Below, piece after piece: positions 1-59,863 of a DNA stretch of 64,000 nt; position 1 is the first letter of the stretch, and each line of letters opens with the position of its first letter. The notes under the pieces were generated by a model, which saw nothing but the letters and a program-made list of their open reading frames with translations, was not told the origin of the DNA and did no database searches. Origin of the DNA: a virus; the IMG/VR virus record IMGVR_UViG_3300045988_039227, positions 41,364-105,363 of that record; one strand, written 5' to 3'. Position numbers and translations under genes: made by a program.

Positions 1-3000
1 CTATACCAAGACTAACGGCTTTATCTACCTCAAGTTCGTACTGCTCCTAAAGTGTTAAAGCCATTATCTACTCTTGCTCTTCTCTAGACTTATCAAAGAA
101 CTGTTCATTAAGAGTCTTAAGCTATTCGTCAGGAGACATATTGCTTATTTCGTAGCGTTTAATCTAGCCGTCTTCATACACTCTAAGTGTCGTAAGTGAT
201 TTAAACTGAATACCACCAGGCTACTTTCCTTTCTTGCCGATGTGATAATTCATTATCTTGTCTTCATCATTAAGTACGGGTAAGCCCTTAGGGTTATCTA
301 CATGTAAACCAAGTTGTTCTCTACAATCAAGTATAGCTTCACGCTCTGTATAAGCATATTCGATAAACTGATTTAATACAGATTGATTAGGCTGCAAATA
401 GTAGTGAGAGCTATCTAAGAATATCATCTTTGGTGCACCGGATACAGTATAAGCACCATTGTCTAACTACCCGAACTACATTCCAGGGATATTTATACCA
501 CCAAGAACCATATATGTACCCTTATCGGCAAGGGTTGGGAATACACAATATCCATTCTGAAGCATTGCGAACTTATTAATATAATCTTCAGCTTCAGCAA
601 GATTGCTATATTTAGAACCATTGTCACCACGATTATCAGACTTGAAGCCAATAGGAGTATAAATACTAATATTGAAATCTTCTCCGTTCTGCAATTGCTT
701 TGCAACAATAGAACCCATGTTCACGCCATTATTATTCATAATGTTGTAACTAGACTACAAAATAGTCCTTACTACCATATTGTTCTTATCATGACTATTA
801 AGGTTCTCTGTAGTATTGCTAATACTATTGTTCTATGACTCGTTATACAGCTTAGTACCATCCATACCATTAGACATCTTATCTGTAGTAATCTTCATAT
901 AGGCTCCAGCCCAGTTACCTAATTCGCTAACAAAACCAGTCTTAAATATCTCGTCTACAGCCTTCTGTGTTGTATAACCATTTGTTTGTACGACTTTGCC
1001 GACTGCATCAATAAAACTATTAATATTAGATACACCAGTAGATGCAATCCACTTTTTAAGGGCTTCTCTACCAACGCCATTATACTTTGTAGATAACATA
1101 TGATCGAGCATTTCTTTTGTAAAGTTTATACCAAGCATATTAAACTCTTTGCATATATCATCTTTAAGTACCTCGATATCACTATTAGATGCTGCGCTTC
1201 TAATCCTTCCGTTTATCTTAAATTCACTAGCAGAATCATTAAGTATCTACGATTGTAAATCAGAGAAGAACTGAGATATAAATCTAAATGCGTTTCTTGC
1301 TACAGTCGTAGGCATATCTACCTAAGTATTCTTTGTGTTATACTTTGTAGAAAGAAGCAATTGTCCATTCTACCCAACATACCTCTACAATAAGCCAGAT
1401 TGACCAGAAGATAAGAACGAGTTCCAAAGCTTAGGGTACATTCTGGCATCTCTGTCGAAGTTTGCATCAGATATTTTGACTTCAACACCTCCGTTCTTAT
1501 TACGTATAGACCTACCAATAATAAAGTTGTGTTCATGGCCCTTTATAGCTGTAAAGATTTGTATCATAAACGCTTCTTTATCGAAGTCTATCTTTTCAAG
1601 CTAATTATCGTCGTTGAATGTATAGATAGAATTGTATAGATCGCTATACTTCTAATAGATTGCCATATACATAGGGTTCTGCGTAGATAACTCCTGCAGT
1701 CTATTTAATAAGTCTAAAGGAGTTTTAACATCATGTAACTTGCTAACAACTACATTAAATACCTGCTTAATAGGCATAAATGTAGGAACGCCATATATGT
1801 TCTTAGATGTATCAAGAGCAAGTTTACCGTTATCATCAAACTTATAGTAAGGTATTGTAGCAAAGAACATCTTCACTGGCTTACTTACAGAATCAAGCTT
1901 ATTGAACTCAAATGCGGACTTATCGTATCTTTCGATAGACTTTCCATAATCATTCTCTTCCTGGTCACTTGTCTCAGAATCGTCATCATGCTGATATTTG
2001 CCGTCATAGGCATCCATTATTTCGGTAAGATACTTCTATACTTCTTTTGATATAGCTGAGAAGTTAGGGAATACAACATCACCTTTATCATTTAATTCTG
2101 CGTAAAACACTTCTCTAAATGCTTGCTGTGTAGGAGTAACTGAATCAACAGACATATACTATCCATTCAGAACGGGCTTAACAGAACCTGGCTCGCCAAT
2201 AAGGTTGTTTATAACCTTCATTGGTATATATTTAATAGGAAGTTCTGAAGAGCTGTGTACTGCATCATATATATCAGTAGCATCTTTAGCAGACTTTACT
2301 ATAATATATCCAAGAGCTCTAGCCATATGTTCCTTCTCAGCGGCAGAGCCTATATGATCGAATTTGCGTCCATTTATTTCATAATGCAAGTCTTCGCCAA
2401 ACAGCTTTTTAAATCTATCTTGCTGTTCTTTGCTTACCTATTTATCTGCATATTTTCCAGACTTAATATCGTTGAACAAAGTAAGAACCGTTTTAGCATT
2501 GTTTCTGTAATGCCACAAGATACTTAATCTGTTAGCTACTTTCTTTATATTCCTCTTAATCCAGCCTTGTTTCTTTATAGCATTAGCGTCTTTTGTGCCG
2601 AGCATATAATCGACGAATAAATCAGCCAATCCCTCAGCTACATCTCTTTCTGTAGCAGCTTCTGGATGAGCTTTTCTGTATGCAGAATACATCTATTCTC
2701 TTACAGATGGCTCTACAAGTAATTCTAATGCCCTATGGAATCCTTCATGGAAGCCAATAGTATAAGGAACTGAATTAGACATCTAGATAACAGCATCTGT
2801 ACACCTAGCAAGTACTGCGCTATTCTTTTTATAAGCTACATCTGATAACCTTTCGCTTTCTACCCACTATGGAGTAATACCTGTTGTCTTTCTGACCCAT
2901 TCATCAACGGCACTAGCAAATGATGGCTTTTGTTTCTAGCCTTCAAACTCTGATAAATCTTGTTCATAGAACAAAGACATAAATGTGTCTTCGGCCTACT

Positions 3001-41304: not shown

Positions 41305-43197
41305 TCATTTATTCCACTTTGCTGCATTACGCGCAAAGTTGGCTTTCTTTCTCATAGCTGCACTATACTTACTTGGATTCCTTAAAACTTTATTAGCAAA
41401 ACTTTGGACACTCATACCATGCTATTTAGCTGCTTTAGTAAATGTACCACGCTTAGATGGCTTAATATAGATATCCTTCCCAGAATTATGAAATTGTAAA
41501 AGCTGTGGATATATCTTATTTTCTAATGGTGTTGGAGTTCTACCAAGGCCAATGTTTATTTTATGATCCTAAATATGGAACGGAAGATCGTATTGTATAT
41601 CAAATGGTTCTGCGCCAATATATTTACCAACCTCCAAATTATTAAGATAATTATAAAGATTTGTATTTTTATAATTGAAATTCTGCAAATAATTTCCAAG
41701 TTTTATTCCAGATCTACCAAGCGTTCCTCTTAGCCCGCTATTATTTGTAGCTGTTCTAGTAGCGCCGCCTTTATCTACGATATCTGATAGCTTTATTTTC
41801 TAACTTATTGTCATCCAGTCTTGGTAATCCATTCTGTCAAATAAGCCCTAATTTCTATATCCGATAAAGTCTTTTGATTTTGATTTTAATCTCGTACCAA
41901 ATTTATTTATAGACTTAGTTCTGTGCTCATTAAAGAAATTAGATATCTTTTTATTTATTCTCTATCCAGGCATTAAATCCCAAGTATCGTTTACTTTTAT
42001 AATGCCTTCTATTGGATTTTTATTTAACAATTTAGTTGAAACAGACACATTTCCACCAGCACTAGTAACAAAGTCTTTATCAACGAATGGCGTTCCGGCA
42101 TTAACTACTTCTATATCCCTAGCACCACCACCGTAGCCTTTTCCTTTTAATTGTTTTAAAGCATCTATATTGGTTAATTTCGTTCCATCAGCTGCAGACT
42201 GCGTAAATTGATAGTCTCCAGATTGTGGTAATTTCAAATACTTTCTATACGCATTAGCTCTTGCCTATAAAGCAACATCTCCATCTATATTATATGCTTT
42301 TTCAAATACATTTTTAAGAGCTCTACCAGCAAAATTATCCTAAGCCCAAAATGCTTTATTAATATCTGGAGCACTACCTTTTAAAACATAATACGGCCAC
42401 GCAAGAGTTGGAGTAACAAGTTTTCTTGCTGAATAAGAGGCAGGAGGAAGATAGCTATATAATACAGATCTTGTGAAAGCGTTATTAAATGGATTATGAT
42501 TTTCTTTTGATAATTCCAACAACTCCTTAGTGCTCTAAATTTTATCAGAAAACTTTTCGCCAATTTTAGATCCTATCATTATGTCAAATAACTAATCAGC
42601 AGCTCTTCCTGTTTCTCCGTAACCACCATAAAGACCCTAATTGCTCTCTTCCCATGGCATTCCTGTTCCACGCAAAGTCCCAATCCATTTAGTAGGCGAT
42701 AGAGCTGTCATAGCTTTACCAATCTTACCAATCTTATCGTAATATCCGGATGTATCGTATCCGTTTTGCTCCGCAATCATTGCTGGATATTTTATTGCAG
42801 CTTCTACTGATTTATCAAAACCATGAACAACGCCGTTAGGATCCCAATATGAAGACGTGTTATGTCTACCAGCTGCAGCCCATGGATTAACTTTTGATTT
42901 GTCTCCAACAACCTCAACTTCAGGCAACTATAATCCGGCACTATAAAATGGCTCTCCCGTCTCTTTGTAGTAAAGCATTCCATCTTTAACTACCAACGGA
43001 GCTCCTGTTTCAGACTTTATTCCTTTACCATCTCCAAATTTAGGCAACTTCAACTTCTTTCTAAGCTACTTCTCAGCTATCTACTACTCTGCTTCAGCCT
43101 ATGCTTTTCTTCTGCGCTTAATCTTACGAAAGAGCTTATGACGCTGATAGTCATTCTTCTTCTGCATCTTTCGCTTTGGACTTTCCATCTGTGTCAT
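41305..43197 (-). CDS. hypothetical virion protein (630 aa)
   Basis: Frame 1 was checked codon by codon. ATG at 43197 (TGA at 43204 upstream), about 20 TAG, TGA at 41305..41307 followed by TAA. It joins track ORFs 42637..42927, 42340..42522 and 41962..42237. Confidence 0.7.
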
Positions 43198-57264: not shown

Positions 57265-57301
57265 TATATATAATGTCTAATTTGATATATGTGTTTAAAC
57301 A

Positions 57302-57331
57302 GTAAAAGGGAACTACCTTTCGGTAATCCCC
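57302..57331 (-). terminator. Rho-independent terminator after dut
   Basis: On the minus strand GGGGATTACC-GAAA-GGTAGTTCCC forms a 10-bp stem with a GNRA loop, followed by TTTTAC. Confidence 0.65.
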
Positions 57332-57345
57332 TTTATGTAAGCGAA

Positions 57346-57903
57346 TTAGGCCTATCCTTCACTTACCTCAGCACCATCTTGTGCCGCCGCTGGCTCTGGT
57401 ACGGACTCAACCTGTTCCTTAAGCTGTGACTGAGTTCCCGTAGCTGCGCTACATTCGTTTTCAGCTCCTGTGCCAGTAGAACCAAATCCACCTTCACCTC
57501 TCTCTGTTGATGAAAGTTCGGAAACTTCTGTGATTGTATACTCTGGTATAGGAACGATGACTAACTGACAGAAGCGCTCACCCTGCTTATAAATAGCAGG
57601 AACAGTATCAGTTGTAGCCTTCATAAATGCTACGATCTCGCCTCTAAAGTCACTGTCGATAACACCGACATTATCAGTAAGCCATAATGACTTCTTCCAA
57701 ATACTAGAGCGTGGTATAAGTAAACCAACATATCCGGCAGGAACCTCAACTGCCAATCCTGTATGGTAAACCAACATTAGCTGATTTGCTTCATTAAGAG
57801 CTGTTTCAATCTTAGTACAAGTCAAATCAATTCCTGCAGCACCTTTTGTGCCACGAATAGGGAGGATAGCGTTATCCTCAAGTCTCTTAAATTTTAACTC
57901 CAT
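57346..57903 (-). CDS. dut: dUTP diphosphatase (dUTPase) with acidic C-terminal extension
   Basis: All five dUTPase motifs are visible: AGIDL, IPRSS, GVIDSDFRGEI, RFCQLV and RGEGGFGSTG. There is no internal TAG. The ORF reaches TAG at 57352, then GCC, then TAA at 57346..57348, giving 183 aa to the TAG or 185 aa to the TAA. Confidence 0.9.
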
Positions 57904-57927
57904 AGTATTCTTTAATATTTATTATTG

Positions 57928-57999
57928 TTACCCCACCAGGATTCGAACCCAGACTAAGAGGGTTAGAGCCTCCTGTGCTAGCCGTTACACCATAGGGCA
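57928..57999 (-). tRNA. amber suppressor tRNA, anticodon CUA (probably Gln-accepting)
   Basis: A hand-folded 72-nt cloverleaf on the minus strand. Acceptor TGCCCTA/TGGGGTA; D arm GTGT-AACGGCTA-GCAC; anticodon arm GGAGG-CTCTAAC-CCTCT (U33, CUA, A37); variable TAGT; T arm CTGGG-TTCGAAT-CCTGG; discriminator A. U1:A72 and the GGUGUAACGGCUAGCAC D arm resemble Gln/Glu-type tRNAs (from memory). Confidence 0.85.
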
Positions 58000-58104
58000 A
58001 TATTGTAGAAGCTCACCTTAGGCTATCGAGCTTTTTATGTGCCTAAAACTACTTTGTTGCGAAGACTCGATTCGAACGAGTGACCTCAAGGTTATGGATT
58101 AAGA

Positions 58105-58178
58105 TGCGGAAGTAGGATTCGAACCTACGTAGAACAGCTTATGAGACTGTGCTGGAACCACCTCCAGTCTATTCCGCG
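58105..58178 (-). tRNA. tRNA-like element with CAU anticodon loop, non-canonical D region
   Basis: On the minus strand: CGCGGAA-TAGA-CTGG-AGGTGGTT-CCAG-C-ACAGT-CTCATAA-GCTGT-TCTAC-GTAGG-TTCGAAT-CCTAC-TTCCGCA. The T arm, anticodon arm and acceptor are good (again with C1*A72). Two extra nucleotides lie between the acceptor and D stems. It overlaps the 3' end of the endonuclease ORF. Confidence 0.5.
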
Positions 58179-58594
58179 ATGTTAATCTTATTTAAAATGG
58201 AATCAAGCTTATAATCACTTGCCAAGTTTATATTGTAATAACAATCACTTGGATAATCTAGTCTAAATGTCATGCTGTTTACGACATCGCCAGTTACAGG
58301 AACCATGTACACAACACCGTTTACGATTGTTGCTATAAAATCAACTTGATCTTTTGTATAAGTTTTTGATACGGATCCATTAGCACTCGATCGCTTATTT
58401 TTAAACGGAATTGTAAATCGCTTTGCGTCTAGCATGTGTGCCGTTTTTATTTGGATTCTATATCGTTTATTTTTAAAATCGAATATACAATCATATCTAG
58501 CATTGTTCCCGTAGGGAATACTAACTATTCCGTATTTCATTAATTCAGCAATAACAAGTAATTCTGTTATACTTCCGTTCTGTTTATAATCCAT
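58139..58594 (-). CDS. PD-(D/E)XK homing-endonuclease-like protein (141 aa to TAG at 58169; 151 aa to TAA at 58139)
   Basis: Track ORF 58169..58594. The pattern GSITELLVIAELMKYGIVSIPYGNNARYDCIFDFKNKRYRIQIKT ... VDFIATIV...VYMVP matches my memory of the group-I-intron-associated PD-(D/E)XK endonuclease family (the I-Ssp6803I type), with D..(Q)IK in the catalytic position. There is no internal TAG. Confidence 0.6.
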
Positions 58595-58656
58595 ATTTAA
58601 TCATTTTTAATGAGCCTTGCGAGCTACCAACTGCTCCACTTCGCGATAAATTATTG

Positions 58657-58738
58657 ACCCGTCACATCGAATCGAACGACGGCCTACTGTGGGCTTAGGA
58701 TCCTTACCACAGGGGTGCTACCACTACACCATGACGAG
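58657..58738 (-). tRNA. tRNA-like gene with expanded 14-nt anticodon loop
   Basis: 82 nt on the minus strand. Acceptor CTCGTCA/TGACGGG; D arm GTGT-AGTGGTA-GCAC; T arm CGTCG-TTCGATT-CGATG. The anticodon arm is a 6-bp stem CTGTGG/CCACAG closing the loop TAAGGATCCTAAGC, and no standard U33-anticodon-R37 reading is possible. Confidence 0.45.
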
Positions 58739-59058
58739 ATAAGCACGTAACCTTTAGCTGGAGTTACGTAGAACCAGTATTGGCGCCATTTGGATCCTGC
58801 AGCTCCGAGCGCTGCTAGGGCAGAAAGATTTTCTTTCACCCGGATGTCCCAGTTTATAGAGATTTCAGAAATGGCGGAAACCTCTCGGCGAACTGTATAT
58901 TCGCCCGTTTTCTTTGACTCTTATAAGTTTTAGCTGGACTTATAACCAGTATTGGGTCCATGTGTCAGCTTACCATGGTAGCTTTTTATTTATAGTGTAC
59001 GCACATGGACGCCACTTTATAGATAAACTAAATTTAATAATCTAAAAAATTATGAGTG
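58739..59058 (-). ncRNA. ~320-nt ORF-free structured RNA candidate with two tandem pseudoknot modules
   Basis: No ORF on either strand, and GC-richer than the flanks. Multiple perfect hairpins on the minus strand: GTCCATGTG...CACATGGAC, GGCGAA-TATACAG-TTCGCC, AGAGGTTTC...GAAATCTCT and GCAGC-GCTCGGA-GCTGC. Two copies of CCAATACTGGTT-N-CCAGCTAAA lie at 58920..58956 and 58743..58784. In each copy the hairpin loop pairs with the sequence just downstream (TTATAAGT/ACTTATAA and ACGTAAC/GTTACGT). Confidence 0.55.
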
Positions 59059-59132
59059 GAGTCTATGCAGGAGTCGAACCTGCTAACTATTCCCTTTGTA
59101 TCGGGTCGTCTTTACCGTTTGACTAATAGACT
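59059..59132 (-). tRNA. tRNA-like gene with weak anticodon stem and 8-nt loop
   Basis: On the minus strand: perfect acceptor AGTCTAT/ATAGACT, D arm GTC-AAACGGTAAA-GAC, T arm GCAGG-TTCGACT-CCTGC. The anticodon arm has only CCC/GGG pairing around GATACAAA. Confidence 0.45.
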
Positions 59133-59142
59133 CTAAAGGTGA

Positions 59143-59466
59143 TTACTTAGTACGAGTAATCCAATTCCATAATCGTTTGTACCAAGGTTTCTTGACCTTC
59201 TCTTCTGCTGGTACAGCTGTGCATCTTCTGTAAACCCCACCATCCTTTATTATGGCTGAGAGATTCTCTGGCAAAAGCTCGTCGAGCAAATAATCTGTAA
59301 AGATTGATATGATTGTATCGTAATCACAATCAGTTATCTTCATACCAAGAGAAATCTTCTTGCCAATGAAATATGCTGTAACATCGTTTGCGTTAGCAAT
59401 GTCAAGCATAGAGATTACATACTTAGGTCTTTTTACCTTAACTGTCTTTTTAATAGCTTTCTTCAT
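59143..59466 (-). CDS. hypothetical protein (107 aa)
   Basis: Intact TAG-free track ORF ending at TAA. Confidence 0.6.
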   Translation of the reverse strand: MKKAIKKTVKVKRPKYVISMLDIANANDVTAYFIGKKISLGMKITDCDYDTIISIFTDYLLDELLPENLSAIIKDGGVYRRCTAVPAEEKVKKPWYKRLWNWITRTK

Positions 59467-59476
59467 AACTTAAATA

Positions 59477-59863
59477 TTAACATGACTCACAACAAGAATC
59501 TCCACATTCGTCGCAATCAAGATCCCTAGGCTTATTCTCCTTCTGCTTAGCTGCCCACTCTTCCTTTCTCTTCTGGTCAGCTTCTTTAGCATTATTAAGG
59601 GCTTTCAACCAATCTTCAGACTTAACTATAACGAAGTCTGCGCCAAGATCTCTATCGTAGAATGTGATAAGGATATCATCTTTCTTTACATCCGCCTCAA
59701 TGGTCTCATTAGGGAAGAACTTAGATGTCCACTCTATATGAGCATCTTCTGGAACAACGTAAACGTCGTCAATTCCTCTTGCGGATCTTTCGATTGCCTT
59801 AACCTCAGTTGTTTCTACATCAACAACAATAGGCTTGCGATCAATGTTTATTATCTTTTTCAT
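59477..59863 (-). CDS. hypothetical protein with C-terminal Cys cluster (128 aa)
   Basis: Intact TAG-free track ORF ending at TAA. The C-terminus reads CDECGDSCCESC. Confidence 0.6.
   Translation of the reverse strand: MKKIINIDRKPIVVDVETTEVKAIERSARGIDDVYVVPEDAHIEWTSKFFPNETIEADVKKDDILITFYDRDLGADFVIVKSEDWLKALNNAKEADQKRKEEWAAKQKENKPRDLDCDECGDSCCESC

Follow-up and report, generated by a model that had tools for sequence, protein, structure and literature searches.

The subject of this work is a split tRNA gene in a phage genome and the nature of the DNA that splits it. The window analysed is the whole 64,000-nucleotide (nt) stretch at positions 41,364 to 105,363 of IMG/VR record IMGVR_UViG_3300045988_039227. 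It comes from a crAss-like phage of the genus Burzaovirus (Suoliviridae) with about 87% identity to the named phages cr124_1 and cr7_1. An initiator-like tRNA(CAU) gene is interrupted here in its anticodon loop by 516 base pairs (bp), which hold an open reading frame (ORF) of 141 amino acids (aa) and a second, complete tRNA(CAU) gene. A first-pass annotation of the window had pointed to this gene; the parts of the locus and its neighbours are collected in Table 1.

Table 1. The split tRNA gene, its insert and the surrounding RNA-gene cluster. All features of the locus lie on the minus strand, and coordinates are positions in the window.
Feature	Position	Strand	Remarks
Split tRNA including insert	58645..58057	minus	
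5' half, nt 1-36, ends in anticodon CAT	58645..58610	minus	CGCGAAGTGGAGCAGTTGGTAGCTCGCAAGGCTCAT; from sequence and ARAGORN -i
Insert, 516 bp	58609..58094	minus	leader, ORF, inner tRNA, spacer
15-nt leader	58595..58609	minus	TAAAAATGATTAAAT; from 10-locus alignment
Homing-endonuclease ORF, 141 aa	58594..58169	minus	I-Ssp6803I-like PD-(D/E)XK; ends in TAG
Complete inner tRNA(CAU), C1xA72	58178..58103	minus	from ARAGORN and Rfam
11-nt spacer	58094..58104	minus	TCTTAATCCAT; between inner tRNA and 3' exon
3' half, nt 37-73	58093..58057	minus	AACCTTGAGG...CTTCGCAA; from sequence and ARAGORN -i
57-nt pseudoknot-forming spacer	58056..58000	minus	
Amber-suppressor tRNA(CUA)	57999..57927	minus	
dUTPase gene	57903..57352	minus	3' border of the cluster
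tRNA-like gene, 14-nt anticodon loop	58738..58657	minus	
Structured stretch, two pseudoknot-motif copies	58955..58920 and 58783..58744	minus	
tRNA-like gene, enlarged anticodon loop	59132..59059	minus	first in the cluster
Conserved 107-aa ORF	59466..59143	minus	5' border of the cluster

The split gene and its insert

When introns are allowed, ARAGORN reports a single tRNA-Met(cat) gene with a 516-nt intron, and the minimum-free-energy fold of the joined halves is a cloverleaf. What the first-pass annotation described here holds: the coordinates of the halves, the cloverleaf, the C1xA72 mismatch, the A11:U24 pair and the loop CUCAUAA with its anticodon CAU. Two of the three pairs in the initiator G:C test are G:C (A29:U41, G30:C40, G31:C39), and the uninterrupted alleles described below are alike in this. 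The exons meet at ...AAGGCUCAU/AACCUUGAGG..., or GGCUCAU/AACCUUG in the RNA. The junction is ambiguous over CAT, which is present at both ends, and the insertion point may lie anywhere from 33/34 to 36/37. Depending on the choice the insert ends in C, C, A or T, so it is true that none of the four junctions gives an intron ending in G. The classical position of the cyanobacterial fMet group I intron, CU/CAUAA (10.1101/2020.01.27.920355), falls within the CAT ambiguity.

It could be objected that the two halves are unrelated tRNA fragments brought together by chance or by faulty assembly. We found nothing in its favour and consider it next to impossible, and it is already refuted by two comparisons. 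The identical split arrangement is found in 9 further independent assemblies from different studies (L122/L140, L123, L136-L139, L141 and L142), which we aligned with the window for a total of 10 copies. Two IMG/VR contigs from the same kind of phage, L040 and L086, carry a syntenic, uninterrupted tRNA gene that is identical to the joined halves at 75/75 positions.

The insert is packed tightly. The first-pass annotation allowed about 15 nt at the 5' end and about 75 nt at the 3' end outside the coding features; the first figure is right, but the second is the inner tRNA itself and the true remainder is 11 nt. The ORF and the tRNA-like element fill nearly the whole insert, and only 26 nt (15 + 11) are left over. 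The leader is unchanged in the 10 copies apart from the length of its T/A run, and the 11-nt spacer is identical in all of them. The start of the ORF, AUGGAUUA (58594..58587), is exactly complementary to the final 8 nt of the spacer, UAAUCCAU (58101..58094), with a shuffle p of about 0.01-0.02. The last 3 nt of the spacer repeat the anticodon CAT (58612..58610).

The ORF had been likened to the PD-(D/E)XK homing endonucleases, and the family search bears this out. It matches the Pfam profile PF11645 (PDDEXK_5) with E=4.7e-19 and 69.2 bits against a cut-off of 26.1, over profile positions 1-137 of 138, and it matches PDB 2OST, which is I-Ssp6803I, by sequence. The AlphaFold model (predicted local distance difference test score 86.7) has 2OST as its top Foldseek match with a template-modelling (TM) score of 0.77 and E 1.7e-8, followed by Hjc resolvases and EcoRV. 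No EndA is among the top 50 Foldseek matches, and we reject the idea that the protein is a relative of that splicing enzyme. D35, Q48 and K50 are invariant in 14 homologs, where the YD...IQIK motif is unchanged, and in the alignment they fall on YD...VQVK of 2OST. We assign the endonuclease to the I-Ssp6803I family. Between copies of the insert the proportion of synonymous differences (pS) is 0.28-0.39 and the ratio of nonsynonymous to synonymous differences (pN/pS) is 0.05-0.12, which tells us that the protein is in use. From these comparisons we take the endonuclease to be under purifying selection and active.

Its reading frame is probably longer than it looks. Homologs in the databases are called at 151 aa. 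Codon 5 (58582..58580) is CAG in the window and TAG in the 9 other copies, so TAG must be read as glutamine in these phages; the L142 copy has a second in-frame TAG. Reading TAG as glutamine extends the ORF past 58171..58169 to a TAA at 58141..58139, where the inner tRNA has its anticodon loop; the stop codon given in Table 1 is probably read through to that point. The TAG at codon 5 also points to a dependence of the endonuclease on the suppressor tRNA, whose gene lies about 60 nt downstream of the split one.

The tRNA-like element that had been noticed inside the insert is a complete tRNA(CAU). ARAGORN calls it, and Rfam gives it 36.7 bits, above the gathering threshold of 29. Its first 10 nt overlap the annotated end of the ORF, and it folds as a cloverleaf with z = -2.9. 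It has U11:A24 and only 1 of the 3 initiator G:C pairs despite its C1xA72, and on these features its status as an initiator is uncertain. Its D arm and anticodon stem are unlike those of the outer tRNA (ACAGU/GCUGU in the inner stem and CAAGG/CCUUG in the outer). It is the only intact tRNA-Met in the window. The 10 copies show 3 variants and a mean pairwise divergence of 0.5%, next to an ORF with a pS of about 0.3. Neutral divergence would be about 30%, so the inner tRNA and the 11-nt spacer must be constrained. The same type of tRNA stands alone in L130, within the 26-tRNA array of another phage, and the inner tRNA differs from this homolog by compensatory changes in the acceptor and T stems.

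Mobility, selection and related inserts

L040 and L086, empty at a site that is filled in the window and in L141, are not the only uninterrupted loci. L229 has an uninterrupted gene identical at 75/75 positions to the exons of the filled locus L138, and the dUTPase genes of these two differ by 0.9%. Backbones that are nearly identical can have the site either filled or empty. Filled and empty alleles are both found within IMG dataset 3300045988. The insert diverges between copies by about 5% on average, and ORF pairs by at most about 12%, while the phage backbones that carry it fall into 3 clades with dUTPase divergences of 16% and 33-38%. It is found in 7 distinct exon alleles with differing flanks. 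Judged by these alignments, filled and empty sites together with an insert more alike than its carriers are the signature of homing. The named relatives cr124_1 and cr7_1 lack the whole block that contains the split tRNA, which makes the tRNA dispensable in the genus, and no phage record in GenBank has the DNA of the insert.

Relatives of the endonuclease are also found outside any split gene. In L133 an endonuclease 87% identical to that of the window lies between tRNA genes, with a degraded copy of the inner tRNA downstream of it. In the cultured T5-like phage My1 the stop codon of the endonuclease gene falls within the first nucleotides of a tRNA-Ile. Other free-standing relatives are found in L124, L126, L134 and L151. 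Since the unit of an endonuclease directly upstream of an overlapping tRNA gene stands free in L133 and My1, we argue that the insert probably began as a free-standing unit beside a resistant tRNA. Going by these arrangements, it was probably captured once inside a sensitive tRNA gene. We rejected L127-L129 as further split tRNAs: a 5' half and an endonuclease are present, the 3' piece is decayed, and the acceptor strand is mismatched.

The outer exons tell a mixed story. They diverge by 5% in the 5' half and 17% in the 3' half. Most of the changes are compensated, also at pairs with one partner on each side of the insert (5:68, 27:43 and 28:42). The outer cloverleaf is fully paired in 9 of the 10 copies. 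Lesions are present in 3 of the 7 split exon alleles: L136 and L142 have C55, and the anticodon stem of L139 has two C.A mismatches. Among 150 distinct uninterrupted phage alleles, U55 is found in 150/150 and the stem pairs mismatched in L139 are intact in 149/150. Lesions in 3/7 split alleles and in at most 1/150 uninterrupted ones point to relaxed constraint on the split gene.

A sister group of the endonuclease has about 245 aa, the same nuclease domain being joined to a C-terminal zinc-ribbon/helix-turn-helix part. These long endonucleases fill anticodon-loop inserts of 730-850 nt in many tRNA genes of large gut phages: tRNA-Met (L135, L143-L146, L149), tRNA-Trp (L277, L281-L284, L292, miscalled as Arg), tRNA-Cys (L286, miscalled as Gly), tRNA-Thr (L287), tRNA-Gln (L291, L293, L295) and tRNA-Pro (L274, L276, L279, L280). 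With the junction placed at 36/37, the last 3 nt of each insert are the cognate codon, paired to the anticodon (AUG/CAU, UGG/CCA, UGC/GCA, ACA/UGU, CAA/UUG, and CUG or CUA/UGG). The junction in L277 is proven by the uninterrupted L354, and what ARAGORN calls 'Arg(CCG)' there is really Trp(CCA). The closing helix of these inserts is 6-10 bp long with compensatory changes and is followed by a second covarying helix; for most loci at most 5 of 500 shuffles yield a helix as long as the one observed. Rfam detects no ribozyme in them. Duplication at a staggered cut cannot produce this inverted codon arrangement, so it looks selected at the RNA level. The codon-anticodon helix recalls the helix between anticodon and intron in protein-spliced tRNA introns.

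Inserts without this endonuclease occur as well. L059 (2655..2734) and L110 (883..962) have a near-identical 80-nt insert without an ORF after the CAU of tRNA-Met genes whose exons differ. Both are large phage contigs in which other tRNAs carry 50-70-nt inserts. In L104 this site is taken by a 740-nt insert that contains an HNH endonuclease ORF. None of these three gives a ribozyme match at the Rfam gathering threshold.

Readings of the insert

The first-pass annotation held that the insert does not look like a standard group I intron, and the Rfam covariance-model search agrees, as it finds no group I core. A scan at E<=10 over 57300..59600 returns tRNA matches only, with no Intron_gpI and no other ribozyme; there is no group I match in 14 related loci at the gathering threshold or in 8 related loci at E<=5-10. 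For the sensitivity of the Intron_gpI model we rely on 10.1101/2020.01.27.920355, where group I introns of bacterial tRNAs are picked up from 18 bits upward. A ribozyme needs about 200 nt or more of non-coding RNA and 26 nt are left. The Synechocystis intron is 655 nt long with a 150-aa ORF, so it has about 205 nt outside the ORF (PMC1995217). It might still be argued that the insert splices itself like the intron of the Synechocystis tRNA-fMet gene, as a group I intron that is perhaps much reduced or conceals its core within the ORF. The same endonuclease family, the same type of target gene and a compatible site speak for this. The U-1 of a group I intron is possible at 2 of the junction choices, but the terminal G is missing, the 15-nt leader contains no P1 guide complementary to AAGGCU, and the ORF evolves as a protein. 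Its synonymous changes are free, so it has no room for a hidden RNA core. We reject a group I intron as very improbable, and the more general suggestion of a reduced or novel self-splicing intron finds no ribozyme to support it.

The reading we prefer, at roughly even confidence, is that the 516-bp insert is a mobile homing cassette without a ribozyme, which disables the resident tRNA and brings a replacement with it. We hold with the same balance of belief and doubt that the cassette consists of a leader, a PD-(D/E)XK endonuclease gene, a tRNA(CAU) and the 11-nt spacer, placed in the anticodon loop. The first-pass annotation had named three alternatives: a self-splicing or protein-assisted intron, a free-standing homing cassette that inactivated the resident tRNA and came with a copy of its own, and an RNA matured by tRNA-processing enzymes. 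The second is the best supported of these, by the presence/absence polymorphism, the horizontal spread, the constrained inner tRNA and the relaxed outer exons. In a mixed infection the endonuclease would cut a related phage's uninterrupted tRNA gene within the sequence for the anticodon stem-loop, as I-Ssp6803I does. Repair would then copy the cassette from the filled allele, with the tRNA halves and flanks as homology arms and with co-conversion of the exons over variable lengths. The insertion would destroy the cleavage site and so make the carrier immune. The outer tRNA is most probably a pseudogene that is not repaired at the RNA level, a step suggested by the relaxed constraint on its exons. 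The cassette's own tRNA(CAU) would replace the lost function, and with its different anticodon stem it would presumably not be a target. Ordinary tRNA-processing enzymes would release it from the transcript. The 3' spacer, predicted to pair with the start codon of the endonuclease, may block translation until the inner tRNA has been excised. I-Ssp6803I reportedly makes a 3-nt staggered cut with a 3' overhang flanking the anticodon. The CAT...CAT direct repeat would fit the first capture of an endonuclease and its adjacent tRNA at such a staggered break, where fill-in synthesis would produce a repeat of this kind.

Several observations sit uneasily with this reading. The ends of the insert are conserved and mutually complementary, which suits a splice-site helix too, and the outer cloverleaf has been kept fully paired in nearly every copy. 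Two exon alleles are identical to functional-looking uninterrupted alleles at an endonuclease pS of about 0.3, which calls for frequent re-homing or recombination, or else for selection on the exons. The closing stems of the long-endonuclease inserts look functional as RNA, and a protein-dependent splicing route may exist in these phages.

These observations lead to the main rival, a genuine intron removed by proteins, in which the helix between the insert ends and the anticodon would mark the junctions and both tRNAs would be made. The cuts would be the work of an RNase from the host or the phage, conceivably even of the PD-(D/E)XK protein itself, and an Rnl/RtcB-type RNA ligase would reseal the loop. 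Of the self-splicing or protein-assisted intron in the first-pass annotation, the ribozyme part is unsupported and the protein route stays as this rival. We regard it as possible but rather unlikely. For it one can cite the intact cloverleaf and the covariation across the insert. AUGGAUUA can form an 8-bp helix with UAAUC+CAU (the CAU being the anticodon if the junction is 33/34), and the ends are invariant. The long-endonuclease inserts add their cognate codon paired to the anticodon at 36/37 and their compensated closing stems. The PD-(D/E)XK superfamily includes tRNA-splicing endonucleases (PMC3424549), and Lak megaphages have conserved, unexplained tRNA introns, one of them with a possible nested tRNA (PMC6784885). 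The difficulties begin with the insert of the window itself: it breaks the codon-cap rule at its 3' end, where it has CAU and not AUG, and 16 unpaired nt separate U33 from the helix. The endonuclease model matches I-Ssp6803I, Hjc and EcoRV, with EndA outside the top 50. Damaging changes are found in three of the seven exon alleles, and a cassette that is spliced out would hardly need a second tRNA(CAU). Neither bacteria nor their phages are known to splice tRNAs by proteins alone. The broken codon rule, the cassette's own tRNA and the exon lesions are why we prefer a pseudogene with a replacement for the window.

Two particular forms of protein splicing can be rejected for this locus. If RNase P and RNase Z excised the inner tRNA, the ends left behind could not be joined into a mature loop; if a ligase joined them, the whole ORF would stay on exon 1 and 10 nt on exon 2. 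A bulge-helix-bulge has two 3-nt bulges with a 4-bp helix between them and the splice sites in the bulges, usually at 37/38. None can be drawn here, either on inspection or in the fold of a junction construct, which has a 5-bp anticodon stem, an asymmetric loop and the 8-bp helix, and position 37/38 is excluded by the sequence.

There is a wider version of the protein route. Gut phages would have widespread tRNA introns without a ribozyme, each with an endonuclease ORF and a codon-anticodon closing stem and each removed by proteins, and the window would be a derived case with a nested tRNA. Perhaps the endonuclease would cut an RNA mimic of its DNA target before an RNA ligase acts. We think this improbable, but if true, splicing of tRNAs by proteins would be seen for the first time in the bacterial world, and these phages would offer a living model for how the tRNA splicing endonucleases of archaea and eukaryotes, members of the PD-(D/E)XK superfamily, could have arisen from homing endonucleases borne by introns.

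How does the insert compare with known systems? One close relative is I-Ssp6803I in the tRNA-fMet intron of Synechocystis PCC 6803, which shares PF11645, the fold (at the TM score given above), the YD...(I/V)Q(I/V)K motif, an initiator tRNA anticodon loop as target and a site compatible with CU/CAUAA. That intron has a ribozyme and a terminal G, whereas the window has 26 spare nt and an extra tRNA; it also sits in a cyanobacterial chromosome and not in a crAss-like gut phage. The free-standing endonucleases of T4 (SegB) and of T5-like phages lie in tRNA clusters and target a tRNA gene of relatives, and neighbouring tRNAs are co-inherited. Intron-less homing of this kind is shared by My1, L133, L134 and L124, whose endonucleases stand beside or overlap a tRNA gene. 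SegB-type endonucleases sit beside a resistant allele, while the unit in the window sits inside its target, with the co-inherited tRNA nested in the disrupted one. MobE is an endonuclease gene without an intron or intein that splits nrdA of Aeromonas phage Aeh1, and the NrdA pieces reassemble into a functional enzyme. It shares with the window the splitting of a conserved phage gene in two by an intron-less endonuclease insertion. However, a tRNA broken in the anticodon loop is unable to decode; in the window a cargo tRNA apparently supplies the function.

The first-pass annotation knew of no such configuration in a crAss-like phage. The nearest case comes from Lak megaphages, where Devoto et al. 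(2019) describe 'enigmatic' conserved tRNA introns, unclassified by Rfam, with alleles that have and lack them, one of which 'itself may encode a tRNA'; the mechanism was left open (PMC6784885). Gut phages of Bacteroidota, recoded TAG, unclassified tRNA inserts and a possible nested tRNA are common to both cases. The annotation's statement needs qualifying by this case. No endonuclease gene is reported there; the phage family is also another one, and the tRNA is tRNA-Thr. The protein-spliced tRNA introns of archaea and eukaryotes share an extended anticodon arm, pairing between intron and anticodon, and the lack of a ribozyme, and archaeal rRNA introns with homing endonuclease ORFs likewise carry the ORF in a distal loop. 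But the archaeal and eukaryal introns usually lie at 37/38, whereas the long-endonuclease inserts lie at 36/37 and that of the window between 33 and 36, with no bulge-helix-bulge. We know of no EndA-type splicing endonuclease in these hosts. Our literature search found no paper on endonuclease-only inserts in phage tRNA genes. A homing element that sits inside its target with a spare copy is apparently undescribed, and so is the wider class of inserts in phage tRNA genes.

By the usual view, a homing endonuclease can persist in an essential or useful gene only if it is sheltered by a self-splicing intron or an intein. The replacement cassette appears to be a third solution, since it carries a substitute for the gene that it destroys. 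It would explain the movement of tRNA genes between phages and the variability of phage tRNA clusters, and it offers a concrete mechanism for the Lak introns with a nested tRNA. There is a practical side as well. Standard tRNA finders missed the split gene and misnamed related ones (Trp as Arg), and this affects tRNA counts in gut phages and what is concluded about recoding. The codon-capped inserts in Met, Trp, Cys, Thr, Gln and Pro tRNAs raise the question whether protein-only tRNA splicing exists in viruses that infect bacteria. That question bears on the origin of protein-spliced tRNA introns.

The surrounding RNA-gene cluster

The split gene lies in a cluster of RNA genes with several unusual members. 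The first tRNA of the cluster scores 38.3 bits with Rfam, is missed by ARAGORN, and is conserved and unannotated in cr124_1 and cr7_1. Its anticodon arm has one extra nucleotide, with an apparent 8-nt loop, GAUACAAA, on a 3-bp stem. In relatives another tRNA adjoins the suppressor, and ARAGORN gives it a 4-base anticodon (uaaa). Both may be quadruplet or otherwise unusual decoders. In the tRNA-like gene just upstream of the split gene the acceptor stem and the D and T arms are normal, but the anticodon stem has 6 bp and its loop 14 nt, UAAGGAUCCUAAGC; ARAGORN and Rfam both miss this gene. Compared with L137 and L139, a C:G pair of its T stem has become A:U, and because this change is compensatory the gene probably makes a functional RNA.

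The structured stretch upstream of this gene has two copies of an H-type pseudoknot motif, CCAAUACUGG-UU-x6/7-CCAG-CUAAAR-x'6/7, whose second stem is fully compensated between the copies (AUAAGU/ACUUAU and ACGUAAC/GUUACGU). The motif is also present in L001, L002, L040, L086, L068, L026 and L123, and in relatives it lies immediately 5' of a tRNA gene (..CUUAU/tRNA). It has no match in Rfam. Theta ribozymes sit 3' of phage tRNAs, and this motif may be a leader or processing element distinct from them. In the long-endonuclease phages the tRNA clusters contain ROOL RNAs (L145 3211..3813 at 343 bits and L127 1369..1973 at 261 bits). In L277 a candidate HDV-like (theta-type) ribozyme (237..291), at 30 bits below threshold, adjoins the 3' end of a tRNA.

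The 57-nt spacer directly 5' of the suppressor tRNA has potential interleaved helices, UUAGGC/GCCUAA and AAGCUC/GAGCUU, enclosed by GUAG/CUAC. Two relatives, L068 and L026, have this element 5' of their suppressor tRNA as well. In L026, from about position 1986 onward (TGCCCTATGGTGTAATGACAGCACAGGAGGCTCT/TTGGTGGAGC...), the amber-suppressor tRNA is itself apparently interrupted in its anticodon loop, by a different insert.

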